64,000 nucleotides of DNA. Origin: an uncultured Gammaproteobacteria bacterium (GTDB lineage Bacteria > Patescibacteriota > Microgenomatia > Daviesbacterales > UBA10151). Positions 6,368 through 60,039 of the stretch are shown piece after piece (within the stretch, counting starts at the first letter, position 1; each line of letters begins with the position of its first letter). The translations under genes were made by a program, and so were the position numbers. Under the pieces are notes generated by a model. It was not told where the DNA came from. It worked only from the letters and a program-made list of their open reading frames with translations, and searched no databases. The stretch covers positions 22,607 through 86,606 of the forward strand of contig CAYMZD010000003.1 in assembly GCA_964394855.1 (NCBI GenBank). The letters are read 5' to 3'.

Positions 6368-7444
6368 CTACCTCATGTCAATCCTAGCCCGGTGACTCTC
6401 TACAGAAGCAAGTAGCCCCAGGGAGATAAGAGTACTGATGAGCGAACTTCCGCCATAGGAAATTAAAGGTAGGGTAATCCCCGTGATTGGCAGAAGACCG
6501 ATATTCATACCAATATTAACCACAGTCTGAAACATTAACACAGCACTCACTCCAATTGCTATCAGATACCCCAAATAATTTTGAGCTTGCAGTGCCACTT
6601 TTAGGCTATAGAAAATTAGAAAAAGGTAAATAATTATTATGATAAGCGTGCCCAAAAAACCTAATTCTTCTGCCATAGAGGCAAAAATAAAATCAGTCCT
6701 ATATTCTGGTAAAAATTGTAATCTACTTTGGGTACCATAACCCAAACCTCGGCCTAAAAATTGTCCAGAACCAACTGCAATAATAGATTGAATAGCCGTA
6801 TAGCCGACCTGGAGAGGATCACTGCCTGGTGACAAAAAAGTATTTATTCTTTGCTTCTGATAATCGTGTAGCGAAAGCCATACCACAGGCAAGATAAAGA
6901 CAAATAGCAGTATTAGGGTGAGCATTTTTTTTAGTGATATGTTGGAAGCAAAAAGCATAAACGACCACAAAGCTACGATGGTAATAGTCGTGCCTAAATC
7001 TGGCTGTTTAAATATCAGAAAAACAATTGGTAAGGTAAGCAGGATGCTTTTTAAAATATTAATCCATGTAGGTCGATTAAACGCCCAAAAAAAACTTAAA
7101 ACAAGTATCAAAACTGGTTTGGCAAATTCTGAAGGTTGAATATTAAAAATTCCCAAAGGAATCCAGCGAATAGAGCCCCGAGATTCTATTCCCAAGATAA
7201 AAACCAGGATAAGTAATAAAATTATCACAAAATAGCTTGGTTTAATAAAATTAACCAGAGTTTGATAATCTATTTCGGAAATTAAAAAATACAAAAATAT
7301 ACCAACGATGGCAAAAATAAGTTGCTGCAAGCCTAAGTTAAAAGAGGTGGAAAAAATGACAGATACACTAAAGGTTAAAAGCAAAAATAAACTGATTGTA
7401 ATTGGCCAATTTATGAATTTAAGCACCATTTCAAATTTTAGCAA
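6368..7444 (-). CDS. rodA: SEDS-family peptidoglycan polymerase (RodA-like, outside the dcw cluster)
   Basis: About ten TM helices and a conserved C-terminal SEDS block GSGQFLGRGLGYGTQSRLQFLPEYRTDFIFASMAEELGFLG. The start may instead be MVLKF at 7429, which would avoid the 14-nt overlap with ileS. Confidence 0.7.
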   Translation of the reverse strand: MLKFEMVLKFINWPITISLFLLLTFSVSVIFSTSFNLGLQQLIFAIVGIFLYFLISEIDYQTLVNFIKPSYFVIILLLILVFILGIESRGSIRWIPLGIFNIQPSEFAKPVLILVLSFFWAFNRPTWINILKSILLTLPIVFLIFKQPDLGTTITIVALWSFMLFASNISLKKMLTLILLFVFILPVVWLSLHDYQKQRINTFLSPGSDPLQVGYTAIQSIIAVGSGQFLGRGLGYGTQSRLQFLPEYRTDFIFASMAEELGFLGTLIIIIIYLFLIFYSLKVALQAQNYLGYLIAIGVSAVLMFQTVVNIGMNIGLLPITGITLPLISYGGSSLISTLISLGLLASVESHRARIDMR

Positions 7445-10337
7445 CTTTTAGCTTTTTATTTTTTACAATAGAAACAGAGGTTGTAGATTTTAATATTTGT
7501 TGCTCAAACTCCTTTGGCCAAGCAGGAGCTGCAATTTTGGTCTTATCAATCAAGGTAAGATTTTGTTCTTTTCTAAGTTGCTGTATCTGTCGTATCAGCT
7601 CTCGTGTCTCTCCCTCATCTTTAAGGGATTGAGTAATCTTTATATCCAAGCTAATAACAGGTTCTTTTGATGGAGACTTTTGGTACTCAACTTTTTTAAC
7701 ATTTACTTCATCTGCCAGAATCTGCTCCAGCTTTGGATCTAGTTTTTCATTCCATTTATATGTCAATAATCCCAGTGGCTGTCTTAACTTTATTCCGACT
7801 TCCTTTCTTTTGGCATGGACTGCTTCTGTAATCTTCCTTACCAGAATCATATCTTTGACTAGTTCTTCATTAAGTAGTGATTTACCCCCTTGGGGATAAT
7901 CTTGTAGATGTACTGATTCATCTCCAGTGAGATTTTTATACACTTCTTCGGCAATAAATGGGGTTAATGGAGCCAAAAGCAAACTTGTGGTAACCAATAC
8001 TTCATACATCACCGATAAACAAGTATTTTTATCCTCTTCCTCGGCTTCCGGTCCAACCCTGTCCCTCGATCTTCTAATATACCAAGTTGAAAAATCATTG
8101 ACCACAAAATCTTCCATTGCTCGAGAAGCAGTTGCAGCGTCATATTTTTCCAAGCTTTCATTAACTAGAATAATCAGCGCATTCAATTTAGCCAAAATCC
8201 ATTCATCCAATACAGTCAAACCACTGCCACTTTTTTCACCTTCCCATTTTGCCAAATTAGCATAATCTACAAAAAACTTATAGCAGTTCCAGAAAATTAG
8301 AACAAATCTTTTTCTGACATCATCGATTAGGTTATAACCGAAACGCAAATCTACCCCCGGATTTGCAGAAAGGTAAATCCACCTCATGGCATCAGATCCT
8401 ACTCTATCAAAAGCTTCATCAAGTGAAACAGCATTACCTTTTGAACCATGCATTTCCTCCCCTTTTTCATCCACAACCTTGCCGTGCCCGAATATTCTTT
8501 TAACCGGAACTTCCTCCTCTAGAATTGAACTCATAGCAATCATGGCATAAAACCAAAGTCTTGTTTGTTCATACATCTCTACAGAAAAATCAGGAGGAAA
8601 CCACTCACTCCAATATTTCTTATCTCTATTATAGCTTGGTACTTCACCAGCTTTCGGAGTAATTGTTGAGTAAGGGACAATCCCGGCATCTAACCACGGA
8701 TTACCTACATCAGGTACTCTAATAGCTAAAGAGCCACACTTAGAACATTTTAATTTAATCTGATCAACCCACGGTCTGTGGGGAGAGTGGCCTTCAAATT
8801 CCTCCCAACCTTCTATGGCTTTTTCCTTTAATTCATCAAATCCTCCTACTACCTCAAAGTTGTCACACTTTTCACATTCCCAAATAGGTAAAGCTAATCC
8901 CCAATATCTTTTTTTGGATATCAGCCAGTCGTGTAGATTTTCTAACCAATCGAGTTCCCTCTTTTCTACAAACTTGGGCTGCCATTCCATTTTTCGGGCA
9001 ATCTTGATCATTTTCTGTCTGAAAGTCTCCTTATCTTTAGGATCTTCTTTATCTACAGCAATGTACCATTCATCCACCAATCTCCAAACAAGTTCTGTCT
9101 TGCACCTCCAACAGGCTGGGTATTTATGAGCAAATTTGACAATATCAAATAAAAATTTACCATCCTCGAATTTCCCCAAATAGTTAAAGATTAACTGCGG
9201 TTCATCTTTGGCGTTTTTACCGGAAAATTCTCCTAAATCACTCAAATACTTTGCTTCTTCATCTATCAGCTCTATAACCGGCAGATTTCTTTCCTTACCC
9301 AATGCAAAATCTTCTGTTCCTGCGCCTGGTGCAATATGAACTAATCCTGTTCCTTCCTCTTCAGAAATTGGCAAAATGACAGGATCGGTTGCCACTATTT
9401 GATGTTTAATATTCCCCATAGATTTTTGTACTCTAGGTAGATTATCAAAAGGTGTCTCGTACTCCAGGCCGACAAGTTCTCTACCCTTAATCACTTTTTC
9501 TATCTTAAGACTCAATTTTTTAGCAGAAACCCTACCTAAATAATACCTATTTCCCGCCACTTGACCAGTTACCAGAGCATATTCTAAATTGGGATCTAAG
9601 GCTACAGCTACATTTCCCGGCAAAGTCCATGGGGTAGTTGTCCAAACTAGGAGATATTCATTTTTTCTTCCAACAATTGGGTATTCAATATAAATAGACT
9701 CATGAATTAGTTCTTTGTAATCCTCAGCTGACATTTCATGTTGAGAAATGGCAGTTCCACAACGAGGACACCATGGTACACTGTCGTGGCCTTTATATAA
9801 CCAACCTCGCTGATTAGTATTTTTCAGAAAATTCCAGATCATATAATTATTCTGATCAGAACCTGTATGATAAGAATTATCCCAGTCCATAAATTGTCCC
9901 AACCTTTTTGATTGTTCGGTAATTACATCCCCATATTTTTGAACTCTTTCCTTGCAAAGATTAATGAACTTTTCTAGAGAAGCTAGCTTATCACCTGGAA
10001 CAATATTTTCTATATCCCTTTTATTTTTAAGTCCAAGGGTTTTTTCAACCTCTACTTCTACCCATAACCCTTGTTCGTCATAACCATTTTGAAATCTCTG
10101 TTTATAACCTTTCATGTTATAAAACCTTTGCCACATATCCTTGTAAGTTCTTCCCCAAGCATGGTGTACACCTAAAGGATTATTCGCGGTCTTGGGTCCG
10201 TCAAGAAAAGAAAACTTTTTGCTGGAAGAATTATTTCTATGAAGATATTTTTTTAATATTTTTTGTTTTTCCCAATAATCTAAGAGTTCTCTCTCCAGCC
10301 CTGGAAAATCAACTTTTGCTGAAACTGGTTTGAACAT
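7431..10337 (-). CDS. ileS: Isoleucyl-tRNA synthetase, type 2 (archaeal/eukaryote-like)
   Basis: 968 aa. The start MFKPVSAKVDFPGLERELLDYWEKQKIL is the type-2 IleS signature. HIGH region PKTANNPLGVHHAWGRT, KMSKS-like EMHGSKGN, CP1 editing domain and Zn-finger CxxC pairs are all visible. Confidence 0.9.
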   Translation of the reverse strand: MFKPVSAKVDFPGLERELLDYWEKQKILKKYLHRNNSSSKKFSFLDGPKTANNPLGVHHAWGRTYKDMWQRFYNMKGYKQRFQNGYDEQGLWVEVEVEKTLGLKNKRDIENIVPGDKLASLEKFINLCKERVQKYGDVITEQSKRLGQFMDWDNSYHTGSDQNNYMIWNFLKNTNQRGWLYKGHDSVPWCPRCGTAISQHEMSAEDYKELIHESIYIEYPIVGRKNEYLLVWTTTPWTLPGNVAVALDPNLEYALVTGQVAGNRYYLGRVSAKKLSLKIEKVIKGRELVGLEYETPFDNLPRVQKSMGNIKHQIVATDPVILPISEEEGTGLVHIAPGAGTEDFALGKERNLPVIELIDEEAKYLSDLGEFSGKNAKDEPQLIFNYLGKFEDGKFLFDIVKFAHKYPACWRCKTELVWRLVDEWYIAVDKEDPKDKETFRQKMIKIARKMEWQPKFVEKRELDWLENLHDWLISKKRYWGLALPIWECEKCDNFEVVGGFDELKEKAIEGWEEFEGHSPHRPWVDQIKLKCSKCGSLAIRVPDVGNPWLDAGIVPYSTITPKAGEVPSYNRDKKYWSEWFPPDFSVEMYEQTRLWFYAMIAMSSILEEEVPVKRIFGHGKVVDEKGEEMHGSKGNAVSLDEAFDRVGSDAMRWIYLSANPGVDLRFGYNLIDDVRKRFVLIFWNCYKFFVDYANLAKWEGEKSGSGLTVLDEWILAKLNALIILVNESLEKYDAATASRAMEDFVVNDFSTWYIRRSRDRVGPEAEEEDKNTCLSVMYEVLVTTSLLLAPLTPFIAEEVYKNLTGDESVHLQDYPQGGKSLLNEELVKDMILVRKITEAVHAKRKEVGIKLRQPLGLLTYKWNEKLDPKLEQILADEVNVKKVEYQKSPSKEPVISLDIKITQSLKDEGETRELIRQIQQLRKEQNLTLIDKTKIAAPAWPKEFEQQILKSTTSVSIVKNKKLKVAKI

Positions 10338-10372: not shown

Positions 10373-11512
10373 CTAGCGGTCACGCAAAAAGGCGGGGATT
10401 TCCAATTTATCAGCCTCTGAAAGTTCTTCCTCTCCTTTTACCTCCAACTGTTCTGAAGGAGGTTCTTCTTCCTTTTTAGTATCGTCCCAATCTTGTGGCT
10501 GCTGTGTCAAAGATGCCGAACCCATGCCCGCTCCTACATATTCCCGCAACCTTCTTCTTGATTCATCAAAACCAGTGGCAATAACAGATATCTTGACCTG
10601 ATCCAACTGATCATCTTTGATAGTGGCCCCAAAGATAATGTTAGCATCAGGATCAGCAGCTTGAGCTATAATTTGAGCAGCATCATTAACTTCGTTCATA
10701 CCCAAATCTGGACCACCCACAATATTAAAAAGTACACCTTTTGCTCCCTCAATTGAAACCTCAAGGAGCGGAGAAGCAATTGCCATACGAGCGGCAGCGG
10801 CCGCTCTATTTTCTCCACCGGCCACTCCAATACCCATTAAAGCTGAACCGGCATTATTCATAATCGTTTTCACATCAGCAAAATCGACATTGATTAAACC
10901 GGGCATGGTTATCAGATCAGAAATGCCCTGTACCCCTTGACCCAAAACAGAGTCAGCCAATTTAAAAGCCTCCTGAAGCGTCATATTTTTATCAACTACT
11001 TCTAGCAGTCTTTGGTTGGGAATAACAATCAAGGCATCAACCTTGTCTTTTAATTTCTCTATTCCCTCTTCAGCCACTATTAATCTTCTGGTGCCCTCAA
11101 AAGAAAAAGGCTTGGTGACAACAGCTACTGTTAGAGCTCCTATACTTTGGGAGATTTGGGCCAAAGTAGGTGCTGCTCCAGTACCAGTTCCACCACCCAT
11201 GCCGGCTGTGATAAACACCATATCTGCATCCTGTAGAACATCTTGCAGTTTTTGCATTGATTCTGCAGCTGCTTCCTCACCAATACTAGGATCACCACCA
11301 GAACCAAGTCCTCTAGTTAAACTTTCACCAATTTGTACCTTAGTGGGACTTTGATTTGTTAGCAATGCTTGAGCGTCTGTATTAACTGCCACAAATTCCA
11401 CACTTTGCATTTGCTGAACGGAGATCATTGAAGAAAGAGTATTCCCACCGCCACCCCCTAACCCCACTACCTTTATCTTGGCAAATCTTTGAACATCAGG
11501 TTTTATAAGCAT
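10373..11512 (-). CDS. ftsZ: Cell division GTPase FtsZ
   Basis: Tubulin signature GGGTGTGAAP, N-terminal KVVGLGGGGGN, and a C-terminal acidic/conserved peptide. Confidence 0.95.
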   Translation of the reverse strand: MLIKPDVQRFAKIKVVGLGGGGGNTLSSMISVQQMQSVEFVAVNTDAQALLTNQSPTKVQIGESLTRGLGSGGDPSIGEEAAAESMQKLQDVLQDADMVFITAGMGGGTGTGAAPTLAQISQSIGALTVAVVTKPFSFEGTRRLIVAEEGIEKLKDKVDALIVIPNQRLLEVVDKNMTLQEAFKLADSVLGQGVQGISDLITMPGLINVDFADVKTIMNNAGSALMGIGVAGGENRAAAAARMAIASPLLEVSIEGAKGVLFNIVGGPDLGMNEVNDAAQIIAQAADPDANIIFGATIKDDQLDQVKISVIATGFDESRRRLREYVGAGMGSASLTQQPQDWDDTKKEEEPPSEQLEVKGEEELSEADKLEIPAFLRDR

Positions 11513-11524
11513 AAATTTTTCCTA
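11502..11524. repeat. Direct repeat copy A (23 nt, tttataagcataaatttttccta), containing the ftsZ RBS and start codon
   Basis: An identical 23-mer recurs at 11573-11595. On the minus strand it reads TAGGAAAAATTTATGCTTATAAA, where the ATG is the ftsZ start. Confidence 0.8.
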
Positions 11525-11526
11525 AA

Positions 11527-11553
11527 TTTAAGCTTGAAAACTCTGTTTTTCAA
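11527..11553 (-). promoter_or_regulatory. Hairpin (9-bp stem GCTTGAAAA/TTTTCAAGC, 6-nt loop) between ftsA and ftsZ
   Basis: A perfect inverted repeat read directly. It is AT-rich and therefore weak. It could be a partial terminator or attenuator after ftsA, or an element modulating ftsZ translation. Confidence 0.3.
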
Positions 11554-11572
11554 GCGGTGCTTTCAAACTTCG

Positions 11573-11595
11573 TTTATAAGCATAAATTTTTCCTA
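11573..11595. repeat. Direct repeat copy B, which on the minus strand creates a 6-codon mini-ORF (MLINEV-stop) with the same RBS as ftsZ
   Basis: Exact 23/23 match to copy A, 71 nt upstream of the ftsZ start codon. On the minus strand it reads ATG CTT ATA AAC GAA GTT TGA. Confidence 0.8.
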
Positions 11596-11659
11596 TCCCA
11601 TACTCTGGACGATTCTATCATACATTTACTGTTTACTCAAGACGCAATCTTTTCTTTAG

Positions 11660-12940
11660 TTAAGGAAGCAGTGACTTAACCCAATCAATACCTTTTTGTA
11701 TCACGGATTTTAAAGGCAGACTTCTTACTAACATTGGTATTTTTAACTCTTTCCCTGAAGCTCCGCTGCTACCATAAAGAATCAAACCTGCTGCTGTAGC
11801 AAAACTAGGGGAATCAATCTCATCAACCAATCCAGATAATCCTACTGCATTGCCTATTCTAGCAGGAAAACCAATCACATATTTTGCTTGATCTAACAAA
11901 CCGACAGTCAGAGCACCCCCTCCGCAAATTACCAACCCAGAAGGGATCTGTGCCCCAAATCCACTTTTTTTAATCTCCTTTAAAACAAACTTAAATATTT
12001 CTTGCAACCTTGGTCTAATAACACCTTCAACAGCAGCTTTGGTAGAAATTTTTTGAATATCTTCAATGATACCAAGAGCTTTGACTTCAATGATATTTTC
12101 TTCCTTTTTCTTTTGGGAATCAGACTCCTCACTTAAAACCGCACTTTTAATCTGTTTACTAAGGTGTACTTTTATTTTTTCTGCTGATTCCAAGGACACT
12201 CGGAGCCCTACTGCCAAATCAGAAGTGACATGCCTAGCTCCTATGGGTATCACCGCAGAGTAGGCCACTGAACCATCAACATATATCACCACATCTGTTG
12301 TTTCCCCACCAATATCTACTAACACCACCCCCAACTCTTTTTCCGTATCAGTCAAAACAGCCAGAGACGAAGCCACCCCAGCAGACACTAGTTCAGTTAC
12401 ATCTATACCAACTTCAGAAACCACTTTTACTAAATTCCTCATGGCAGTACTGGAACCAGTAATTATATGTGTATCTGTTTCCAGTCTCACGCCCGTCATA
12501 CCAATTGGATCTCGGATACCTTCTTGACCATCAACAGTAAAAGTGCGCGGGATAACATGTAATATTTCTCGAGAAGAAGGCAGCGGTAATGCTCTGGCAG
12601 CCTCATTCACCCTTAAAACATCACTTTCTTTTATCTCTCCCTCTGGTTCAGAAACCGCCACCACCGCATGTTGATTAATGCTTTCAATTTGCGGGCCTCC
12701 CAGTGACACAAAAGCGGAAGAGATCGAATACCCCGCCATTCTTTCAGCAGCTTCAACAGATTCTGTGATTGCTTCAACAACCTCTTCAATATCAACCACC
12801 TGGCCCTTCCTAACTCCCTTGGAGGAAGTGGCAGAAACACCAATAAGATTTATTTTGCCATCTTCTTCAATATTGGCTATGAGAGTGGCTATCTTAGATG
12901 AACCTACATCTATTCCACAAACTACTTTATCCCTGGCCAC
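11660..12940 (-). CDS. ftsA: Cell division protein FtsA (actin-like ATPase)
   Basis: N-terminal GIDVGSSKIATLIA (phosphate-1), the actin-fold motifs DIGGETTD and GGGA, and a C-terminal amphipathic tail. Confidence 0.9.
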   Translation of the reverse strand: MARDKVVCGIDVGSSKIATLIANIEEDGKINLIGVSATSSKGVRKGQVVDIEEVVEAITESVEAAERMAGYSISSAFVSLGGPQIESINQHAVVAVSEPEGEIKESDVLRVNEAARALPLPSSREILHVIPRTFTVDGQEGIRDPIGMTGVRLETDTHIITGSSTAMRNLVKVVSEVGIDVTELVSAGVASSLAVLTDTEKELGVVLVDIGGETTDVVIYVDGSVAYSAVIPIGARHVTSDLAVGLRVSLESAEKIKVHLSKQIKSAVLSEESDSQKKKEENIIEVKALGIIEDIQKISTKAAVEGVIRPRLQEIFKFVLKEIKKSGFGAQIPSGLVICGGGALTVGLLDQAKYVIGFPARIGNAVGLSGLVDEIDSPSFATAAGLILYGSSGASGKELKIPMLVRSLPLKSVIQKGIDWVKSLLP

Positions 12941-12968: not shown

Positions 12969-13718
12969 TTATTTAGCAACATATTTAATAATAGGTCTGC
13001 TGTAGCGCAGATCTATAAACTCCACTTCTTCTTTTATTTTAGCTTCTGTAAGGATCAGTTGTAAAGATGCCAGTTGAAAATCCGGGGACGCTTCGAGAGA
13101 AAAGTATATTTTGGGGTTTGCATCAATAAATAGCATCGTTTGTGAGTAAATTTTGGCTTCTTTAATTTCCATACCCATCCTTTTCAGCTTATTTAAAATA
13201 TTGATGGCGTTTTTCACAACCCCTTCATCTAATTTAGACCCTAAAGTTAAATCCTGTGCTGTCAAGTAAATTTTTGGCACACTGATATTTGGTAAATTTT
13301 TAGAAAAAATAATGCCATCCTCGTCAACCACCAAACCGGCTGCAGAAGAGCTCTCCTCTGATTTTGAGATGATTAGTAGAGCCTGGGGAGTGCGAGTATT
13401 TGCATCAATAATTAAACCATTGGGAGGTTTTCTAGAAAGTTTCACCTCCTTTAAACATAAAAACTTTTGCCTAAGATTACTTCTCATGGCTCCTATATCA
13501 ACAAAGAAAATGTTTTTACCTGCAGCCTCTGATATTTTTTTTATATCCTCCTCACTCGTACAATCTTTTTTATCCAAATTTACCTGAATATTTTTAATTT
13601 CAAAAAATTTTGAATCGAAGAATAAATAACCATCAATAATTAAAAATAAAATTACTAGAGAGAGGCTTAATCTCCATAAATTGGAAAGCAGCTGATTGCT
13701 TTTTCTTTTTTTCACCAT
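12969..13718 (-). CDS. ftsQ: FtsQ/DivIB-like cell division protein (single N-terminal TM plus POTRA-like domain)
   Basis: Supported by position between murG and ftsA, a single TM (LSLSLVILFLIIDGYLFF), and its size. Sequence similarity is weak, so the call rests mostly on synteny. Confidence 0.55.
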   Translation of the reverse strand: MVKKRKSNQLLSNLWRLSLSLVILFLIIDGYLFFDSKFFEIKNIQVNLDKKDCTSEEDIKKISEAAGKNIFFVDIGAMRSNLRQKFLCLKEVKLSRKPPNGLIIDANTRTPQALLIISKSEESSSAAGLVVDEDGIIFSKNLPNISVPKIYLTAQDLTLGSKLDEGVVKNAINILNKLKRMGMEIKEAKIYSQTMLFIDANPKIYFSLEASPDFQLASLQLILTEAKIKEEVEFIDLRYSRPIIKYVAK

Positions 13719-40127: not shown

Positions 40128-41153
40128 CTATTGTTTACTATCATATAATTGTTTATAAATTTTAAATGTCTCTTCTGCACATTTTTTCCAGGAAAATTTT
40201 TTGGCTTGTACAAATCCCCTCTTAATCATTCTTTTTCTTTTTTGCTCATCTTCCATCACCTGCCTTAATTTATTTTCAATATCCAAAACAGACTCCGGAT
40301 TAACATATTCTGCCGCATCTCCACCCACCTCCGGCATAGAAGAAACACTTGAGCTAATAACCGGCACTCCACAGGCCATAGCCTCTAAAATTGGCAAACC
40401 AAATCCTTCATAAAATGAAGGGTAAAGTAAAACTTTGGCCCCGCCATATAAAAGGGGTAGCTCCTCTGATGAAATCCAGGGAGTAGTCTCTCCGGTAATT
40501 ACTAAATTATAATTTTTAGCTGCCTCTTTCACCCTTTTTAAATTCCTTCTCTCCCCTACCCCACCAATAGCTAAAATATAATCATCTGGAAGTTGATACT
40601 TTCTTTTAAATTCCTCCACTTTATCGGCAGATTGAGGTTTAAAATTATCGGACACTCCCTCATAAATTACTGTAATTTTTTCTCTGGGAATCTGCGAAAT
40701 CTCCAGTAAATCTTTTTTGGTACTTTGGGAAACCGCAATTACTATGTCCACCTCCCTCTCCACCAGCGCCAGACGCCTTTTGTGAACTTCCACAATTTTA
40801 TGATGTGACCACTTCGGAAATTTTAAAGGGATCACATCATGATAAGTTGTTATTTTTTTAGCTTTCGAGGGAGGCTGGGTCCAATCAGAGGAGTGAAAAA
40901 CATCCACCTCTCCAATAAAATTATCTATCCCAAACATTCTCCATCTATTAAATAAAATTTCCAGCAAAGTTGGAGGGATGGGGAATGATTTTACCTTTGG
41001 TAAGTTTCCATGATATGATTTTCGCAAAGATGAATAAAAAAAGATTACTTCTAAATCTTTAATTTTTAAAAGCTCTTCTGCTAAATTTAAAGTATAATTG
41101 GCCACTCCCCCAGGATGAGCAATTTGGGAAATATCAAGGCATGCTTTGATCAT
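40128..41153 (-). CDS. GT4-family glycosyltransferase
   Basis: [18 protein letters not shown] (E-x7-E). Start trimmed to MIKACLD, because the track start overlaps the upstream gene. Confidence 0.75.
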
Positions 41154-46496: not shown

Positions 46497-47252
46497 TTAC
46501 ATCTTTTTAGCTATAATCATCAAATCAGAACCTAACCCCAGTTTGGTTAATATCCATGAAGGTAAGGCAGTGGCGACTTCCATAAAAAATCTTTTTTTAA
46601 AAGTTAAAAGTGACAAAATTATTCCCCCTATGGGATTTTCATAATCCCACACTCCAGAAGCTTTTTCGCTAAATTTTATTTTAAATCCTAATTTCTTTAA
46701 CAGAATTTCCAAAGATTTTTCTGTAAAATGCCAGAGATGTTCTTGAGGTAACAAAAGCGGCCAGTTTTTGCCCATTAATTTTGCCGAGAAGCCTCCAAAA
46801 TTGGGCACATCAATATAAAGTAATCCGCCGGGGTAGAGTAAACTTTTTACTTTTTTTATAACTTCCATAGGATTTTCCAAATGTTCCAAAGTATGATTTA
46901 AAATCACTAAATCAAATTTTCCGTCGATTTTAACCTGCATAAAATCCCTAACTAAAACTTGAATTCCTCTTTTTTTTGCAATTTCTGCTGCTTTAGTAGA
47001 AATTTCTATGCCTTCAACTTGCCATCCTCTTTTTTTAAGAAGGGCTAATATGACCCCGGTTGAACACCCTATTTCCAAAACCTTCCCGGGTTTAGTAAGT
47101 TTTGAGATAATATTCACTCTTTTTAAAAAAATATTTTGGAATAGATTTTCTGCTTTAATGTATGCTTCATCACGATAATATCCCCCTTTTTGACTACCTA
47201 AATCTTTGGTCATCCCCAAACCGCAATGTGGGCATTGATAAATATCCATCAT
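46497..47252 (-). CDS. Class I SAM-dependent methyltransferase with an N-terminal Cys-x2-Cys zinc-ribbon
   Basis: CPHCG, VLEIGCSTGVILALLKKRGWQVEGIEIS (motif I), and a DVPNF-type motif later. Start trimmed to MMDIYQ, because the track start overlaps the upstream gene by 85 nt. Confidence 0.75.
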   Translation of the reverse strand: MMDIYQCPHCGLGMTKDLGSQKGGYYRDEAYIKAENLFQNIFLKRVNIISKLTKPGKVLEIGCSTGVILALLKKRGWQVEGIEISTKAAEIAKKRGIQVLVRDFMQVKIDGKFDLVILNHTLEHLENPMEVIKKVKSLLYPGGLLYIDVPNFGGFSAKLMGKNWPLLLPQEHLWHFTEKSLEILLKKLGFKIKFSEKASGVWDYENPIGGIILSLLTFKKRFFMEVATALPSWILTKLGLGSDLMIIAKKM

Positions 47253-48070
47253 TTTATTAATCTCCTTTTGATTTTCTTTAGTGGGGTTTCCATAGCAGCT
47301 CGCGTTTTGTATAAAAAATCCGCTTTTTGCCAAGGTGAGGGAACAATTTTCGGCCTCTTAAGATAAAGTACTGATGGATATTTAAAATCTTTGGGGAAAG
47401 GTATTCCTAGCTCGTATTTGAACCTCATAATACGCTCCACCACTTGAGCATCTTTACTTGAGCGCCGAAGATGAGATGCATGTAAATATGGGGCATCTAC
47501 CACAGCTACCTCGTGAGGATCTCTTTCGTAAATTAATTTACCTTGCTTGTCAAAAAATCCTTCTCTTAAAAAACCTTGAGGATTAGGATGCACTTCTACA
47601 TGAAGTCCGGGGATATTTCTTTTAAAAACCCGCAAATTATAATGACCCACCCTTCCAGCTATGTGGTAGTCCCCTGCTATTTCTTCTTGATAGTGGTAAA
47701 CATCACCTAAAAGCATCAGAACGGGAACCACTATACATTCGGCTTTAGTTTTTTGAAGCTTCTGCCTTATTTTTTTTATTGAGCTATCCAACCAGATCTC
47801 ATCCCCATCCAAAAGCAACACCCAGTCAGATCTTGTTTCTTTAAGCATTTGCTGCCTTAGGTTGGCATGAGTAACCATTTCCGTATTGGCTGGAAACTGT
47901 CGCAAAACTATTTTGGGAGATTTAATAGTCTTAATAATCTCAACCGTCTGATCGGTTGATCCCAAATCATAAATTAAAATTTTATCCACAAAGTCTATTA
48001 CACTCATCAAAACAAACCAGATAAAATTCTCTTCGTTTCTCACAACCGTATTAGCCCAGACTGTTTTCAT
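47249..48070 (-). CDS. GT2-like glycosyltransferase (DxD = DGDE)
   Basis: TVVRNEENFIWFVLMSVIDFVDKILIYDLGSTDQT and LLLDGDEIW. Confidence 0.55.
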   Translation of the reverse strand: MKTVWANTVVRNEENFIWFVLMSVIDFVDKILIYDLGSTDQTVEIIKTIKSPKIVLRQFPANTEMVTHANLRQQMLKETRSDWVLLLDGDEIWLDSSIKKIRQKLQKTKAECIVVPVLMLLGDVYHYQEEIAGDYHIAGRVGHYNLRVFKRNIPGLHVEVHPNPQGFLREGFFDKQGKLIYERDPHEVAVVDAPYLHASHLRRSSKDAQVVERIMRFKYELGIPFPKDFKYPSVLYLKRPKIVPSPWQKADFLYKTRAAMETPLKKIKRRLIK

Positions 48071-49299
48071 GCTTTTTTGAATTTATAAATCATCCAAATT
48101 ACAGAAGATACTAAGCTAAAAATTTGCGATACCAAAACCGCTAAAGCTACCCCCATCATACCTAATCGTAAAATTAAGAAATATCCCAAAAAGGCTAAAA
48201 TTAAAAGTTGTCCCAGCGAGATAAAGACAAAAACTTTTGGTTTGGCAAAATAATAAAAAATGGCCTGATGTGCGGGAGTGGCCATGAGAAAAATGAGCTG
48301 GCTTAAGAAAAGTATGGCAAATATATTAATACTTTCCCCAAAAGCCTGACCATAAAAAAACGGGATGGCAAAATGGGCAAGAGGTATTCCCAGAAGTCCC
48401 AACAGAGCCAGTCCTACACTCAAAAGCTGCAGTCGTTTTAAATAATTTAAGATTTCCTGTTTATCTTTAGCTGCAGATAGTTTAGGAGCTATTACCGTGG
48501 CCAAAGCAGCCACTAGTTGTGGGACTACCATAGTTAGCTGGTTAGCAGCAGAATAAATTCCTAAGGAAGAGGCGGAAACTAGACGAGCCAACAAAAAGGT
48601 ATCCAGACGAGAACTAACTGCCGATATAAGCGAAGTCGAAGCAACCCATTTGTTGTAGTGGAAAAAGTCTACCGCCACACTATTTTCGTCTTTGACTACC
48701 ATGAAGCGAGGTAAGAATAAAAGCCCCAGAAAAAAACCCAAAAAGGGGATGATAATATAAGCCAAAAGTACGCTCTCCACAGTAAATACAGCAAGAATTA
48801 AAACTAAAATTAACCGCAATCCATTTAAACCAATGTTTAAAAGACTCCAAATTACATAATGCTGCATGGCTTGTAAACTGTGGGAAACAAAAGAAAAAAG
48901 TAATGCTCCGCCTACACCAATGAGGGATAACCTTAAAGGTAACTCTAACTCAACTTTTCCAAACACAAAAGAAGAAATAAAGGGCATTAATAACCATCCT
49001 ACACCCAAGATAATTACCCAAACGGCTAATTTTATTTTGAGACCCAATTTCATAAATCTTAAAGCTTTATCTTGATCTGCATTGATATATCTACCAACGA
49101 AGCGAATTAAACCTGTATCTGTCCCCAAATCAGCGATATCGGCAATTAGAGTAAGTGTCGTAATGGCCAAGGTTAATATACCGAAACTAGCCGGACCTAA
49201 AAACCTGGCAACCAGAATATAAAATAAAAGCCCTAATAGACCATTTAAAAAAGTCCCCAAAAATGTAATGCCTGTTTGGCCTAAAGTTTTTGCAAACAT
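48067..49299 (-). CDS. Wzx-type (MOP superfamily) polysaccharide flippase
   Basis: About 12 TM helices. N-terminus MFAKTLGQTGITFLGTFLNGLLGLLFYILVARFLGPASFGILTLAITTL is typical of PF01943 flippases. Confidence 0.75.
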   Translation of the reverse strand: MFAKTLGQTGITFLGTFLNGLLGLLFYILVARFLGPASFGILTLAITTLTLIADIADLGTDTGLIRFVGRYINADQDKALRFMKLGLKIKLAVWVIILGVGWLLMPFISSFVFGKVELELPLRLSLIGVGGALLFSFVSHSLQAMQHYVIWSLLNIGLNGLRLILVLILAVFTVESVLLAYIIIPFLGFFLGLLFLPRFMVVKDENSVAVDFFHYNKWVASTSLISAVSSRLDTFLLARLVSASSLGIYSAANQLTMVVPQLVAALATVIAPKLSAAKDKQEILNYLKRLQLLSVGLALLGLLGIPLAHFAIPFFYGQAFGESINIFAILFLSQLIFLMATPAHQAIFYYFAKPKVFVFISLGQLLILAFLGYFLILRLGMMGVALAVLVSQIFSLVSSVIWMIYKFKKA

Positions 49300-49314
49300 C
49301 TAATCTTTAAAGTA

Positions 49315-51894
49315 TCACTTTCTACTTTTAAAAGAAAGCTGACTTAAACAATAAAGAAAAAGCCCAACAACTGTTATGGTAGATATCACCATGCCCACCT
49401 GGACGCGGTCTTGCGGTTTATAATAAAGTTTAAGGTTTCTTTTGCTTATATCACCCACCCCAAAACCGTTAATCATGGAGTACACTGGTAGAGATTTTAT
49501 GGGGGCGTTAGTTAATTTCCATCCTTTGCTAAAACGATCAGAGAAAATAATCCATTTAGCGCTACGGGGTAAATTAATTAAATATTCCGTAGGATTTTTC
49601 TCTTGATAATCTATTTTTAAAAGAGTTAGTTTGCTAAACTCCTCGACAAGTTTTTTCTCATCATCAGGTAGAGAAAATGTGGGGAATTTCTGAATAAGTT
49701 TATCCGCAAAACTCAAGGCTCTATCAAAGTCTGCTTGAGGGAAAAAGGCCACTGCATTAATAGCTTGAAATCCTCCTAAATTTTTAAAAGTTACTGTGTA
49801 GCGACCAGGAGAAAGCTGGATAGGGCCTGAAAAATCCCAGTTAAATCGAGAGCCTGTATTTTTAACAATCTTTTCTTTGCTGGCAAAATTAATCTTAAGT
49901 CCGGCTGAGTCAGTGGAGGATAATGAGCGGGTAGCCAGATAGTAATTATCTATTTTTTTAACATCGACCTGATACATCATTTCCTCGTCTTTAATTGAAG
50001 AAAAATCCAAACCATTTTTAAATCCCAGATCATCTGTGCTGATTCCGTTCTTTAGGAGTTCATATTTCCACCGCAGATATTGATCAGGGCTATATCTTCC
50101 CCAATGACCACTAATAAAATCACTTTTCTTTAAGAAAAAATCTTGTAAAAAGGAAAGTTCTAAATCCTTTTTACTGGCATTTTGAAAAACCAACAGAGCA
50201 GAATCTTCAGGCAAAGATAATAAGTCATTTGGATTAAGTAAACCGTCCTCCACAAATAAAGCTCCTATTTTAATAAAATCCCGCCCACCATAAAAACTTC
50301 CATCACCCACTACAATCGCAACTTTTTCCTGGCCATAAATTTTATCTCGAGGAGTTGATACCTGGTAAACTGGAAAGTGGAGTCCCCAATCCAGTTTTTT
50401 AAACCCCAGGCTATCTATAAATTCTAAGAAAAGTTTTCTATTTTCTATATCCTTTTCTGAAAAATCTTTCTGACGGGGAGATTCGGGGAAAAAAGCATAT
50501 TTGATACCCAAGACTTCAAACCAAGAGGTTAAGTTATCATCATGTAAAAAATTAAACAGATCATAAGTACCGGAAATATTTAGGGCAAATGGTATTTCTT
50601 TATAAAGTTCACTGGCTGATAAGCCTTCTTTAGCTAAACCACTAAAGCCAAAAGGCGACCGTTCGGGAAACCATACTGACCTAAAAAAAGATTCATCTTT
50701 TTGTAAATTTTGATAAATTTTTTGGTAATCTCTATCAAACTGCCTTCCAGATAAACTGCCTGATAAATTACCCAAAAGAGCCGGCCAAATAAGTACCAAA
50801 AGATATAAATAAACCAAGATGGCGAGAAGACGAGAATGGAAACCCGTCATTGTTTTAGCCAATAAAATACCTGCGATGAGGGTAGCAGGTATAAAAAATT
50901 TAGTGGAGTCCCTAAAAGCATAAGCCAGCGGAAAATAGTTTATCAAAAACTCAAAGACTCTACCCATGGGTCCAAAAGGAGCACTAATTAAAAGAACAAA
51001 ACTTAAGAATAAAATATAGAATAATAAATTTTCTTTTCTCTTTTTAAATAGAAGACTGCCAAATAAAAGAAATGGTAAAAAGATAAAATACCAAGGAATA
51101 GCATTAATTTTACCAAATTCATTTTGAGGAAAATGAGGGTTAAAAATGGTTAGACCATGAAGGATTGTGATAAAACTCGCTGGCAAATCATTCTCCAGCT
51201 GGGCAACTGTCCCTCCATTAAAACCATTAAAAATAAATGGTATTATCCAAAAGGCATCAAGTAAAATAGTTAAAAGCAAGACATAAATAATATTTTTTGA
51301 TAAGTTATTAAATTCCAGCAAAAAATAAGTTAACAAAGCTAACATAGCCACTCTTAAGTCCGAGTTGGTTAAAAAGAAAAAGGTGAGTACTGATAAAAGA
51401 ATTTTTCCTTTATTGAAAAAATAAAGAGTCAGGGGAAACAACCCATATGAGAGGGCCAGACCAATTTGACCTCCATCAATTAAAAGCAAAAAATAAGTGT
51501 TAAAAGTATATAAAAGACTACCAAGCGTAGCTGCTAAACGATTTTCTACAAATTTTTTAATGAAAAGCCAGGAGCCTACAGCGGCAAGGATGGTAGCGGG
51601 AAAATAAAAAATCAACCTGATGGCTATATCAGCAGTAACTCCCAGCTTTCCCAAAACAGCCATTAAAAAGGTTGGTAAATAAAGCCAAAGCACTTGGAAC
51701 TGTGGACCACCAAAATTGTCATTTCGAAAATCCCAGGCTAACGGTTTTTGTAAAAGGCTGGATAAATTTTCCGGGAAAAAATAAGGAGCATCACCAAAAG
51801 TAAGAGGACCGGGAAGGAAAAAAGCTTTAAATACCAAAAGGTATGGAATTATAATAATAAAAAGGGGCCAAAAATTAATCTTATTTTTTATCAC
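49315..51894 (-). CDS. Large polytopic membrane protein, 859 aa, with YfhO-like topology (putative GT-C glycosyltransferase)
   Basis: N-terminal multi-TM region of about 400 aa, a soluble domain of about 400 aa, and one C-terminal TM. This is the size and layout of Bacillus YfhO-type enzymes. Inference only. Confidence 0.4.
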   Translation of the reverse strand: MIKNKINFWPLFIIIIPYLLVFKAFFLPGPLTFGDAPYFFPENLSSLLQKPLAWDFRNDNFGGPQFQVLWLYLPTFLMAVLGKLGVTADIAIRLIFYFPATILAAVGSWLFIKKFVENRLAATLGSLLYTFNTYFLLLIDGGQIGLALSYGLFPLTLYFFNKGKILLSVLTFFFLTNSDLRVAMLALLTYFLLEFNNLSKNIIYVLLLTILLDAFWIIPFIFNGFNGGTVAQLENDLPASFITILHGLTIFNPHFPQNEFGKINAIPWYFIFLPFLLFGSLLFKKRKENLLFYILFLSFVLLISAPFGPMGRVFEFLINYFPLAYAFRDSTKFFIPATLIAGILLAKTMTGFHSRLLAILVYLYLLVLIWPALLGNLSGSLSGRQFDRDYQKIYQNLQKDESFFRSVWFPERSPFGFSGLAKEGLSASELYKEIPFALNISGTYDLFNFLHDDNLTSWFEVLGIKYAFFPESPRQKDFSEKDIENRKLFLEFIDSLGFKKLDWGLHFPVYQVSTPRDKIYGQEKVAIVVGDGSFYGGRDFIKIGALFVEDGLLNPNDLLSLPEDSALLVFQNASKKDLELSFLQDFFLKKSDFISGHWGRYSPDQYLRWKYELLKNGISTDDLGFKNGLDFSSIKDEEMMYQVDVKKIDNYYLATRSLSSTDSAGLKINFASKEKIVKNTGSRFNWDFSGPIQLSPGRYTVTFKNLGGFQAINAVAFFPQADFDRALSFADKLIQKFPTFSLPDDEKKLVEEFSKLTLLKIDYQEKNPTEYLINLPRSAKWIIFSDRFSKGWKLTNAPIKSLPVYSMINGFGVGDISKRNLKLYYKPQDRVQVGMVISTITVVGLFLYCLSQLSFKSRK

Positions 51895-51916
51895 AGGCTA
51901 AATTGTAGCTAATTAT

Positions 51917-53308
51917 ATGCTAAACAACAACTTGAATGTAATCCTCTTAACTGTCTTTGCATTTATCCTCCGCCTGAAATTTATGTCTCCTTGGCTTGAG
52001 GACTGGGATTCAGTTCAGTTTGCCATTGCCATGGATTCTTACTCTTTATCCGAAGGGATACCGCATGCTCCAGGATACCCCCTATATATTTTGTTGGGTA
52101 AATTTTTATTTTTATTTTTTCATGATCATAATTTGTCTTTGTCTTTTTTAAGTAGCCTTTTAGGATCTTTATCTGTTGTGCCGCTTTACTTATTAGCCAA
52201 TAAGATGTTTAATCAAAAAGTAGCACTACTTTCAAGTCTAATATTTATTTTTTCTCCTGTTCACTGGACCCTGTCGGAAATTGCTCTTACCAATATGCCC
52301 GGTCAGTTTTTTCTCCTACTTTGGATCTATTTATTATACAAATTTATGAATAATTTTAAGGCAAAGGTAATGCTCTCGGGTTTGGCCGGTATCATTTTGG
52401 GGGTGCGGTTTACAGAATTTCCCATCATTATCTCTTTACTTATACTAATATCATTAAAAAAATTTAATATCAGAAAAGCTCTTTTTACTATCTGCTCGTT
52501 TTTTCTAGGATTAGCCTCATGGATGGTTCCTCTAATGTTAATAAGCGGGATTAATCAATTCCTTGAAAGTTATGGTTTTATTGCTAATTATATTTTTAAA
52601 CATGATGCTCTTTTAGACCAGGGAAGATACGGTCTTCAAACAATCAACATCAGATTTGAAAATTTTCTACTCCTACTTAAGTGGTCATATACAGTACCAT
52701 TTACGATACTCGGAACAATAACAGTTATTTTCGTAATAAAAAATCATTTATTTAGGGAGTTTAAATATTTATTCTTAAGTCTTTGGGCTGCTTCTTATCT
52801 ACTACCCCTCCTGTTTTTTTATAATCTAGAAGTTACTCGATATACTCTACCCCTTTTACCACCTCTGGCTATATTAACTACCACACAACTTTATAAATTA
52901 ACAAAAAATAAGATCGCTCTCGCTGGGGTAATAGGTATCATTTTGGGGTTTCTTATTTATCAGTCACAAGATCAGGTTAGGAGATTTAAAAATAGCGTTC
53001 CACCCACAGTTGCATCAGTAGATTATGTCAGGAAAAATTTTGCTCCACACAATACAACTATTATCCCCACAAATACTTTACGTCATTTCCAATATTATGG
53101 ATCAGAGTTTCCATTAATAGATTTAAAAAATGCCAATTACAATCAAGATTTCAAAAATAAAACTATCATCATAGATTTTCCCGGAACAAAAGATAAATTT
53201 AAGGAGTTATCAAACTATGATATAACTAAAAGGGTAGATTTTTTCGGAGATAAAGATATTTATAATAGAATAAATAAAGTTTCAATATATATTTTGAAAC
53301 CAAAATAA
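51917..53308 (+). CDS. DUF2723/TMEM260-like polytopic membrane protein (putative GT-C)
   Basis: The first loop EDWDSVQFAIAMDSYSLSEGIPHAPGYPLYILLGK matches my recollection of the DUF2723 hallmark (WDSGEF ... HPPGYP). About 11 TM helices and a C-terminal soluble tail. Confidence 0.5.
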   Translation: MLNNNLNVILLTVFAFILRLKFMSPWLEDWDSVQFAIAMDSYSLSEGIPHAPGYPLYILLGKFLFLFFHDHNLSLSFLSSLLGSLSVVPLYLLANKMFNQKVALLSSLIFIFSPVHWTLSEIALTNMPGQFFLLLWIYLLYKFMNNFKAKVMLSGLAGIILGVRFTEFPIIISLLILISLKKFNIRKALFTICSFFLGLASWMVPLMLISGINQFLESYGFIANYIFKHDALLDQGRYGLQTINIRFENFLLLLKWSYTVPFTILGTITVIFVIKNHLFREFKYLFLSLWAASYLLPLLFFYNLEVTRYTLPLLPPLAILTTTQLYKLTKNKIALAGVIGIILGFLIYQSQDQVRRFKNSVPPTVASVDYVRKNFAPHNTTIIPTNTLRHFQYYGSEFPLIDLKNANYNQDFKNKTIIIDFPGTKDKFKELSNYDITKRVDFFGDKDIYNRINKVSIYILKPK

Positions 53309-53319
53309 GAAAATATTTT

Positions 53320-53955
53320 ATGAATAATAAACAGTTAAAAAAAATTTGGAACCAGGTTCCTCCTGATTACTATGAAGTGGGTATCAAGAGAAATTTTTTT
53401 CAATGGCTTTGGTTTTATTGGAAAGCCCAAAACTTAATTAATTTTATTAAAAATAAGGATTTTCACACCATACTTGATATAGGGTGTGCTGCGGGAACAT
53501 TAACTAATAAAGTTTCCCAAATATTACCTAATTCTAAAATCACTGGAGTAGATGTTTATTCTAGCGCACTAGCTTTCGGTAAAAAAAGATACCCTCATAT
53601 TAATTTTGTATTATCAGATGCTCATAAATTACCTTTTAAGAAAAACTCATTTGATTTAATTATTTGCATTGAAACAATTGAACACGTTTCTGATCCAGAA
53701 AAAGTCTTTATGGAAGTGAAACGTGTTCTTGGGCAAAACGGAACTTTTATTTTAATCATGGATTCTGGATCTTGGCTTTTTAGAATTGTCTGGGAAATAT
53801 GGGAAAAATCTAGGGGTAAAGTCTGGCAAGGAGCACATCTTCATCCTTTCCATCATAATGAATTGGAGAAATTGATTAAAAAATCAGGATTTAAAATTAT
53901 TAGAAAAAAATTTTCCAATCTGGGAATGGAAGTTTCTTTTGTATTGAAAAAATAA
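53320..53955 (+). CDS. Class I SAM-dependent methyltransferase (Methyltransf_11-like)
   Basis: ILDIGCAAGTLTNKV (motif I), TGVDVYSSAL, SFDLIICIETIEHVSDPEKVFMEVKRVL. Confidence 0.8.
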   Translation: MNNKQLKKIWNQVPPDYYEVGIKRNFFQWLWFYWKAQNLINFIKNKDFHTILDIGCAAGTLTNKVSQILPNSKITGVDVYSSALAFGKKRYPHINFVLSDAHKLPFKKNSFDLIICIETIEHVSDPEKVFMEVKRVLGQNGTFILIMDSGSWLFRIVWEIWEKSRGKVWQGAHLHPFHHNELEKLIKKSGFKIIRKKFSNLGMEVSFVLKK

Positions 53956-53956
53956 C

Positions 53957-55405: not shown

Positions 55406-55414
55406 TTTAATATT

Positions 55415-58006: not shown

Positions 58007-58008
58007 GA

Positions 58009-60033: not shown

Positions 60034-60039
60034 ATAGAA

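Follow-up and report, generated by a model that had tools for sequence, protein, structure and literature searches.

A probable structured RNA leader around a duplicated ftsZ start region in a subset of Candidatus Daviesbacteria

The 64,000-nt stretch of contig CAYMZD010000003.1 examined here (the window) harbors, in the spacer between the cell-division genes ftsA and ftsZ, a short element in which the start region of ftsZ is duplicated around hairpins. The same element was found at the same position in 7 of 30 ftsZ loci of Candidatus Daviesbacteria (Microgenomates, Candidate Phyla Radiation, CPR), and it is probably a conserved, ftsZ-specific, structured 5' leader of the mRNA in a subset of these bacteria. 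Among these seven distantly related genomes the element core shows a mean pairwise identity of 89% (range 78-96%), whereas the four-fold sites of ftsZ show 36%, against a composition expectation of 30%; the corresponding values are 31% for the 30 nt upstream of the element's first ATG and 44% for the third positions of ftsZ codons 3-32. The favored interpretation, drawn from sequence comparison and given an even chance, is a cis-acting RNA leader that would regulate ftsZ translation at the RNA level, probably by way of ribosomes engaged at a short upstream open reading frame.

Within the window, the exact 23-nt sequence TAGGAAAAATTTATGCTTATAAA is present twice on the minus strand, 71 nt apart from start to start, and is the longest local direct repeat of the whole 64 kb; by arithmetic, the recurrence of an exact 23-mer within 300 nt is expected at ~1e-5 (coordinates of all features are given in Table 1). 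The upstream copy (D1) opens a six-codon upstream open reading frame (uORF), MLINEV, and the downstream copy (D3) opens the real ftsZ. Hairpin 1 is formed by the uORF start and the invariant segment I1, AGUUUGAAAGCA (11569-11558), which includes the uORF stop, while hairpin 2 begins 7 nt past that stop and consists of nine perfect pairs, GCTTGAAAA-ACAGAG-TTTTCAAGC, its 5' and 3' arms being termed D2 and I2; TTAAATT separates it from the downstream repeat copy. The stretch AAGCTTAAATTT adjoining hairpin 2 is complementary to AAATTTATGCTT at the ftsZ start, and the 3' arm of hairpin 2 together with the bases that follow (GUUUUCAAGCUUAAAUUU) is complementary to AAAUUUAUGCUUAUAAAAC, again at the ftsZ start. 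In the start-sequestering hairpin so formed, AAGC of the 5' strand is shared with hairpin 2, and the AGGAA resembling a Shine-Dalgarno (SD) sequence (11523-11519) makes up the loop. The distance from the uORF stop to the ftsZ AUG is 50 nt, and the 87-nt core is more stable than 196 of 200 dinucleotide shuffles (z = -2.44). The sequence-only reading of this DNA that preceded the present analysis had the repeat and its 71-nt spacing, the MLINEV uORF and the 9-bp-stem hairpin right in every detail, with the strand (minus) left unstated; the promoter-like site, the complementarity of AAGCTTAAATTT to the ftsZ start and the hairpin formed by the uORF region are additions to it. The ftsA-ftsZ spacer of 147 nt, which it had considered unusual, is long because the 71-nt insert is present; over the 30 loci the spacer measures 128-229 nt in carriers of the element and 46-104 nt in the others. 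Further local direct repeats, 60-68 nt apart, were observed at 46956-46976 and 47016-47036 and at 40536-40552 and 40604-40620, and the minus strand of both holds SD-like cores (GAGGA, AAGGA).

The 30 loci, all from Daviesbacteria, were taken from species-representative genomes and from look-ups of close FtsZ homologues. The element was present in the window and in L001, L004, L009, L014, L017 and L204, the last being the one instance added by ten look-ups of FtsZ relatives. The carriers share the order ATG-YTK-ATR-AAY, AGTTTGAAAGCA(C/T)CGCTTGAAA, a variable loop and GTTTTCAAGCTTAAATTT, followed by a second variable loop (5-33 nt, resembling an SD in four genomes) and by AAATTT-ATGCTTAT, which opens ftsZ. 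The 23 loci without the element exhibit only an extended -10 box (TGnTAnAAT) 6-40 nt (mostly <25) 5' of the ftsZ ATG, usually with no SD. Searches for the element, among them one with a covariance model (R1), placed it at ftsZ only: the seven ftsZ copies scored 75-91 bits with the model and nothing further was detected in 290 kb, no second copy of the core was found in the 64-kb window, and among the related loci the element was seen at ftsZ alone. A dispersed miniature repeat of the MITE, REP or Correia type was rejected for the sequences thus covered, and a transcription-factor motif was rejected as well, since the 11-nt motif occurs at chance frequency (15 matches in the window against 11.4 expected). 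No gene associated with the element was found, the full motif was absent from the viral contigs scanned, and a metagenome scan with GTTTGAAAGCANCGCT returned at least 120 chance matches, with the hairpin in none of the matches listed. The best match in Rfam 15 (E = 0.1) scored 20.9 bits where the gathering score is 100, and no family threshold was reached.

The conserved block ends sharply at the uORF ATG on one side and at codon 3 of ftsZ on the other. Co-transferred recombination tracts would not produce such borders; they fit purifying selection, and a site-specific mobile unit is a much less likely cause of them. The ATG of the uORF is invariant in all seven genomes, and the frame behind it is lost after codon 4 in L017 and L001; the uORF comprises 6 codons in five genomes, 10 in L017 and 25 in L001, with the peptides MLINEV, MLINKV, MLMNGV and MLINKFESIA and a 25-aa ORF, which in L001 ends in TAATG overlapping the ftsZ start. 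Because the frame changes after codon 4, the constraint acts on the nucleotides and not on the peptide. Differential conservation was also observed for codon 2 of ftsZ, which is CTT in 7/7 genomes with the element and in 5/23 without it, and whose U is required for pairing with AAGC. The comparison of 7/7 with 3/19 gives a Fisher p of 1.8e-4, not corrected for phylogeny, and this p refers to the 3/19 count; the 5/23 count extends the latter by L203 (codon 2 TTA) and two CTT genomes (L209 and L210).

The position of the element within the locus suggests how it may have arisen. In L205, which is without the element, the promoter and leader are near-identical to those of L009 up to an ATG that opens ftsZ in L205 and the uORF in L009, and L207 and L209 stand in the same relation to L014. 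Since ftsZ of the element-less relatives begins exactly at the uORF position, the uORF start is the ancestral ftsZ start, which an insertion or duplication with direct repeats on its flanks has displaced. The element is thus an indel situated about 11-12 nt into ftsZ, with the start region directly repeated on either side of it. The upstream start copy varies as native starts do (codon 2 CTT, TTG or CTG), the downstream copy is always ATGCTTAT, and the exact 23-nt repeat of the window is a lineage-specific extension of a shorter conserved repeat. In the proposed origin, ~70-95 nt would have entered ftsZ, by insertion or duplication, right behind its first 11-12 nt; the ancestral start, still downstream of its native promoter, would have turned into a short uORF, and a second start copy, usually with an SD-like purine tract, would open ftsZ today. 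The interior of the element is not a copy of the 5' coding sequence of ftsZ, and a deletion between the direct repeats would restore exactly the arrangement without the element. The idea that the element consists of five start-motif copies in alternating orientation was tried and rejected, as the similarity covers 8-9 of 11-12 positions and does not stand out clearly from shuffles (p = 0.16 and 0.03); what is retained of it is the description as segments complementary to the start.

Pair counts were made on the alignment of the seven sequences (A1). The statistics are modest, as there are seven sequences, most stem positions show no variation at all, and the structures themselves were derived from this set. 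Hairpin 1, the uORF start with AGUUUGAAAGCA (columns 14-24 and 28-38), has 94% of cells paired with three wobble-compatible one-sided changes; hairpin 2, D2 with I2 (columns 41-49 and 56-64), has 97% of cells paired with A-to-G changes kept as G.U; and an AU helix of UUAAAUU with AAUUUAA just 5' of the ftsZ AUG (columns 66-72 and 101-107) has 100% of cells paired. Overall, 96.7% of cells are paired, compared with 27-56% when the partners are slid by 1-3 columns. The seven one-sided changes that preserve pairing are all G.U or U.G on the ftsZ-sense strand, and in the AU helix of L001 one strand has gained a U and the opposite strand an A, a compensated insertion that amounts to two double changes. 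Variable columns number 12 of 56 among the paired and 8 of 16 among the unpaired (p = 0.054), and all seven cores fold better than shuffles, with z from -2.4 to -4.8.

The same segments also have more than one partner. Across the seven genomes hairpin 2 has an energy of -8.0 to -9.9 kcal/mol and the hairpin of I2 with the ftsZ start one of -8.4 to -10.8 kcal/mol; since these ranges are close in all seven, the two mutually exclusive pairings of I2, with D2 or with the ftsZ AUG region, are nearly iso-energetic in every genome. RNAalifold pairs I1 with the ftsZ start, enclosing hairpin 2 and the AU helix, and locally I1 also pairs with the uORF start as hairpin 1. The pairing at the ftsZ start masks the AUG and not the SD. 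The multi-partner segments I1 and I2 are the invariant ones, as is typical of switching sequences. In the minimum free energy (MFE) structure of the window (-17.3 kcal/mol), hairpins 1 and 2 are formed and the ftsZ AUG is free.

A leader of this anatomy could regulate ftsZ in the following way. The insert supplies I1, complementary to the start sequence, and the 9-bp hairpin, whose 3' arm (I2, GUUUUCAAGCUU + AAAUUU) can alternatively pair with the ftsZ AUG region. In a first fold, hairpin 1 (uORF start with I1) and hairpin 2 (D2 with I2) would leave the ftsZ AUG free; in a second, I2 or I1 would lie on AAAUUUAUGCUU and the AUG would be masked. In co-transcriptional order, hairpins 1 and 2 would form first, with the ftsZ AUG left free. 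A ribosome translating the uORF would halt at the UGA inside I1 (inside D2 in L017), covering I1 and the foot of hairpin 2, and I2, thereby freed, would pair with the ftsZ start. FtsZ synthesis would in this manner be coupled to ribosome traffic at the ancestral start, and uORF translation would be predicted to act on it in a mildly negative or buffering way; in L001, where the uORF runs into the ftsZ start, positive coupling would be given instead.

Several observations weigh against such a regulator. The element is dispensable, 23 of the 30 relatives being without it, among them the closest relatives of carriers; only seven instances from ~5 lineages are at hand, and most stem positions are invariant. 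The sequence-only reading had proposed a spacer alignment to look for covariation in the stem and for conservation of the uORF, and there the uORF start is upheld, whereas the frame does not persist and the covariation is thin: the observed values are attained by 12 of 500 shuffles, and L001 alone accounts for the two double changes. MFE topologies differ by genome, including a P1 helix (I1 with I2), a clade-specific helix of the uORF with the hairpin-2 loop, and a three-way junction, and masking of the uORF in silico shifts the accessibility of the ftsZ AUG only slightly and inconsistently; on these two grounds a simple two-state thermodynamic switch was rejected. The CTT at codon 2 could simply belong to the inserted unit and not be selected for pairing. 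A longer start-sequestering helix, with 30-nt arms reaching codons 6-9 of ftsZ, was likewise rejected, as synonymous sites there vary freely.

A more specific form of the regulatory leader is offered tentatively and is rather doubtful. The duplicated start would serve as a decoy in a bistable, ribosome-sensing leader in which both starts compete for the same complementary segments, and ribosome loading at the first would shift the hairpin-2 3' arm to the second, gating or buffering FtsZ synthesis against global translation capacity. If this were true, the leader would become the first described cis-regulatory RNA of a CPR division gene, and lineages could switch the leader off cleanly through deletion between the direct repeats or through allelic exchange.

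The element is patchily distributed among its hosts. The seven carriers are scattered on the FtsZ tree and are mutually saturated at four-fold sites (0.44-0.47), the nearest relatives of the window (L201, L210 and L202) are without the element, and so are the closest relatives by four-fold identity of L009 (L209, 0.72) and of L014 (L207, 0.70). Because the carriers are scattered and these closest relatives of L009 and L014 are without it, the distribution needs at least three gain or loss events. Some features of the element track host clades, such as a 1-nt deletion in L017 and L001 and a long loop insert in L014 and L204, and on this account old vertical inheritance with repeated loss is favored. 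Allelic exchange may contribute, since the upstream region is mosaic: L209 joins an L009-like ftsZ coding sequence (~90% nt identity) to an L014/L207-like promoter region, which suggests recombination breakpoints near the ftsZ start. The extra insert of L014 (689-719) and L204 (470-503), TTTTTTAAGCAAGA..., lies in the SD-loop of the element, and its UUUAAGC offers GCUUAAA, in the region of the hairpin-2 3' arm, one more possible partner in this clade. A locally duplicated segment of the ftsZ promoter (ctgttatattctg ... ctgcttatattctg) was observed in L014 (560-720) and L207 (1-62) and is absent from L209 (20-86). In L203 (1501-1548) the database FtsZ P0076 (401 aa) is called from a TTG within its own promoter (TTGTTACAAT), the conserved FtsZ start MLIKP lies 16 codons past this TTG, and the called start is an annotation artefact.

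This patchiness bears on an explanation without any regulatory role, which is possible but on the doubtful side. A duplication or template switch would have split the ftsZ start, after which most point mutations would tip the RNA towards permanent masking of an essential start and would be removed by purifying selection, while clean deletion or allelic replacement would be tolerated. Strong conservation together with frequent absence is what such a locked-in insertion would leave, and it is seen in the pairs L009 (with) and L209 (without) and L014 (with) and L207 (without), at a four-fold identity of 0.70-0.72, whereas pairs of two carriers are saturated; the element-less relatives have an ordinary short-leader ftsZ, the region is mosaic and, as in L014 and L207, tends to duplicate locally, and the direct repeats, 11-23 nt long, lend themselves to deletion by slippage. 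Persistence past synonymous saturation in at least five lineages despite this easy deletion route nevertheless argues for a benefit, in 7/7 genomes the two pairings of I2 have remained close in energy, and an SD-like tract was gained in the loop in 4/7. Even with no regulatory output, the element would be a useful case of a non-coding insert whose sequence is held constant because mistakes would hide a start codon that is essential.

Hairpin 2 with the tail UUAAAUUU could also be an intrinsic terminator between the ftsZ promoter (and read-through from ftsA) and ftsZ, uORF ribosomes or the helices I1:D2, P1 and P4 deciding on its formation, so that the leader would be a transcription attenuator of the pyrBI or trp type. 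The terminator scan places the hairpin among the best terminator-like sites in 20 kb, hairpin and T/A tail are invariant in the seven genomes, the alternative helices overlap its 5' arm, and with the uORF stop 7 nt 5' of the stem a terminating ribosome would cover the stem foot. The stem, however, has just 3 G-C pairs among 9, and AAA breaks the tail right after two U's in all seven genomes, though the simple scan was passed. The tail furthermore pairs with AAAUUUA just 5' of the ftsZ AUG, a pairing that a terminator does not need and that is kept in L001 by the compensated indel, any termination point would be upstream of the constrained codon 2 of ftsZ, and the six-codon uORF has no regulatory codon run and no repeated codon. 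Attenuation is accordingly rated unlikely.

A site acting at the level of DNA is quite improbable. The 9-bp arms, the 6-bp spacer and neighboring motifs could be read as an operator of a dimeric regulator, as the core site of a recombinase or as a second promoter (TTGAAA-17-TAAATT, 11553..11525): the arms form a perfect palindrome conserved in sequence around a variable spacer, and a scan gives a 9/12 promoter-like match within the element. Changes in the arms (A to G in L009 and L014, C to U in hairpin 1), though, break the DNA symmetry and keep G.U pairs in the sense RNA; the -35/-10 spacing would be 2 nt shorter (~15) in L017, promoter-like matches of such quality occur at chance rate, the 11-nt motif shows no enrichment over the rest of the window, and no second copy was found in the 290 kb searched. 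A neutral, recent, strain-specific tandem duplication scar, which the unusually long exact 23-nt repeat of the window and the lack of the element in its nearest relatives might suggest, is hardly credible, as the same interior at 78-96% identity is present in six other genomes whose neutral sites are saturated and as this interior does not copy the sequence past the ftsZ start, which excludes a simple tandem duplication.

The sequence-only reading had left the choice between a regulatory device and a duplication scar. An RNA-level device is probable and is supported indirectly, by conservation, the wobble and compensated changes, and codon 2, while the neutral scar is rejected by 89% identity in the core against 36% at four-fold sites. 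It had also held that absence of the second copy and hairpin from related genomes would mark a neutral duplication; 23 of the 30 loci show this absence, yet the other seven are strongly constrained, and absence by itself is too simple a measure. Its suggestion of translational coupling tuning the FtsA:FtsZ ratio is poorly supported, given a conserved extended -10 box between ftsA and the element, a uORF stop 50 nt from ftsZ, and a TAATG in L001 only.

The setting of FtsZ levels is central to bacterial cell-size control, and to our knowledge nothing is known of how they are set in uncultivated ultra-small CPR bacteria. Literature searches turned up no account of an ftsZ leader from Daviesbacteria or from CPR, and the element, as represented by seven sequences, is probably a previously undescribed candidate regulator of ftsZ with an unusual origin. 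A conserved leader whose uORF is the former start of the gene would provide a concrete candidate for the regulation of cell division in CPR and a case in which a small insertion at a start codon may have created a uORF-plus-switch architecture in one step. Its presence and absence between close relatives supply natural 'with' and 'without' alleles.

Features known from other uORF leaders are recognizable here. A short ORF with initiation signals lies 5' of ftsZ (invariant ATG, promoter-like box, orthology to the ftsZ start of relatives) and is predicted to be translated, and the ftsZ start region pairs with segments (I2 and I1) that have alternative partners within the uORF or close to it; neither a conserved leader peptide nor stalling codons were found. 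Translational attenuators of ermC and cat combine a short leader ORF, which bears its own initiation signals, with pairings that exclude one another; in one of them the downstream start is masked. The ftsZ element resembles them in its leader ORF with initiation signals and in consecutive, alternately pairing segments, one masking the downstream start, and differs in having no conserved stalling peptide (the frame differs in 2/7) and in targeting an essential division gene and not a resistance gene. The trp, his and pyrBI attenuators are built of a promoter, a leader ORF, four alternately pairing segments and a hairpin with a T-containing tail, and this overall layout is repeated here, but with a weak terminator (3 G-C pairs, tail UUAAAUUU), no regulatory codons and a conserved pairing that reaches the downstream start codon. 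In programmed bypassing, as in T4 gene 60 and the mitochondrial byp elements, matched take-off and landing codons flank a gap; the short insert in the 5' coding sequence, the repeated codons on its flanks, and the stop and hairpin soon after the first copy are reminiscent of this. Translational bypassing was nevertheless rejected, as uORF codons 2-4 differ from ftsZ codons 2-4 in L004, L014, L204 and L001 and the second copy has its own ATG.

In the Salmonella mgtC-mgtB intergenic region, translation of the 8-aa uORF mgtQ, for which specific acidic codons are required, releases a sequestered ribosome-binding site (PMC8092293). Common to both systems are a very short intergenic operon ORF (8 aa in mgtQ, 6 aa here), alternative stem-loops over the uORF and a sequestered downstream start (PMC8092293). 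In contrast to mgtQ, the peptide of the ftsZ element is not conserved, the AUG is paired and the SD is free, the uORF duplicates the regulated gene's own start, and the thermodynamic model suggests if anything weak repression. In Sinorhizobium meliloti, an upstream ribosome-binding site and start on the same leader affect the main ribosome-binding site through coupling and occlusion (PMC13285730). The L001 uORF ending in TAATG over the ftsZ start resembles the coupling type (PMC13285730), whereas in 6/7 genomes the uORF ends 50-76 nt 5' of ftsZ, too far for direct occlusion or classical coupling, so that any effect would have to act through RNA structure. The traits that set the element apart from known uORF leaders are the lack of a conserved peptide, the masking of the AUG and not of the SD, ftsZ as the target, and a uORF that duplicates the target's own start.

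The gene order on the minus strand is ftsQ-ftsA-ftsZ-ileS by Pfam, as shown in Table 1. The relatives of its FtsZ assign the organism to Candidatus Daviesbacteria; the best matches of the FtsZ protein among the species-representative genomes have 80-85% protein identity, and its N-terminus MLIKPDVQRFAKIKV is common to the relatives.

Table 1. Positions of the genes and of the parts of the element in the window
Feature	Position	Strand	Basis
ftsQ-like gene	13718..12969	minus	Pfam
ftsA coding sequence, GTG start, TAA stop 11662-11660	12940..11660	minus	Pfam FtsA and SHS2_FTSA domains, translation
Promoter-like site, -35 TTGAGT (11640-11635), 17-nt spacer, extended -10 TG-a-TAGAAT (11620-11612)	11640..11612	minus	consensus scan; function inferred
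Upstream repeat copy (D1), SD-like AGGA 11594-11591, ATG 11583-11581	11595..11573	minus	repeat search; orthology to ftsZ start of element-less relatives by alignment
uORF, 6 codons ATG CTT ATA AAC GAA GTT and TGA 11565-11563, MLINEV	11583..11563	minus	translation
Hairpin 1, UGCUU-A-UAAAC / GUUUG-A-AAGCA, uORF start paired with I1	11582..11558	minus	MFE fold, -6.3 kcal/mol
Hairpin 2, GCUUGAAAA (D2), 6-nt variable loop, UUUUCAAGC (I2), 9 bp, terminator-like, then UUAAAUUU	11555..11532	minus	fold and terminator scan
Start-sequestering hairpin, AAGCUUAAAUUU (11535-11524) paired with AAAUUUAUGCUU (11518-11507)	11535..11507	minus	complementarity and energies
Downstream repeat copy (D3), AGGA, spacer, real ftsZ ATG 11512-11510	11524..11502	minus	repeat search, homologues
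ftsZ coding sequence	11512..10373	minus	Pfam Tubulin and FtsZ_C domains, homologues
ileS	10337..7431	minus	Pfam

The promoter-like site of the window is placed between ftsA and the upstream repeat copy, and an equivalent TGnTAnAAT box is found 5' of ftsZ in all the relatives examined and 5' of the uORF in all the genomes with the element. Directly 3' of the extended -10, nearly all Daviesbacteria ftsZ promoters (L002-L016 and L201-L210) display a C/G-rich CTGCC(C), giving TGnTAnAAT-CTGCC, which is kept amid otherwise unalignable AT-rich spacers and which in the window (11612-11605, minus) has the form TAGAAT-CGTCC; it could be a discriminator or start-site box. Several genes of the window have a -10-like box (TATAAT, TACAAT or TAAAAT) 6-8 nt 5' of the start codon and no SD, such as ileS (10337, minus; ttaaaatattctcattATG), with further starts at the reverse-complement coordinates 36551, 41170, 42921 and 50279. 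Strong SDs were observed on other genes of the window, as in ftsA with GGAGGG, and genes of the leaderless type and SD-led genes seem to coexist in the genome.

In the region of the window from 48000 to 60600, the GC content falls from ~0.37 to 0.31 at 52-60 kb, the AT skew has its maximum at 48-52 kb, and the genes turn to the plus strand at ~51.9-60.7 kb.

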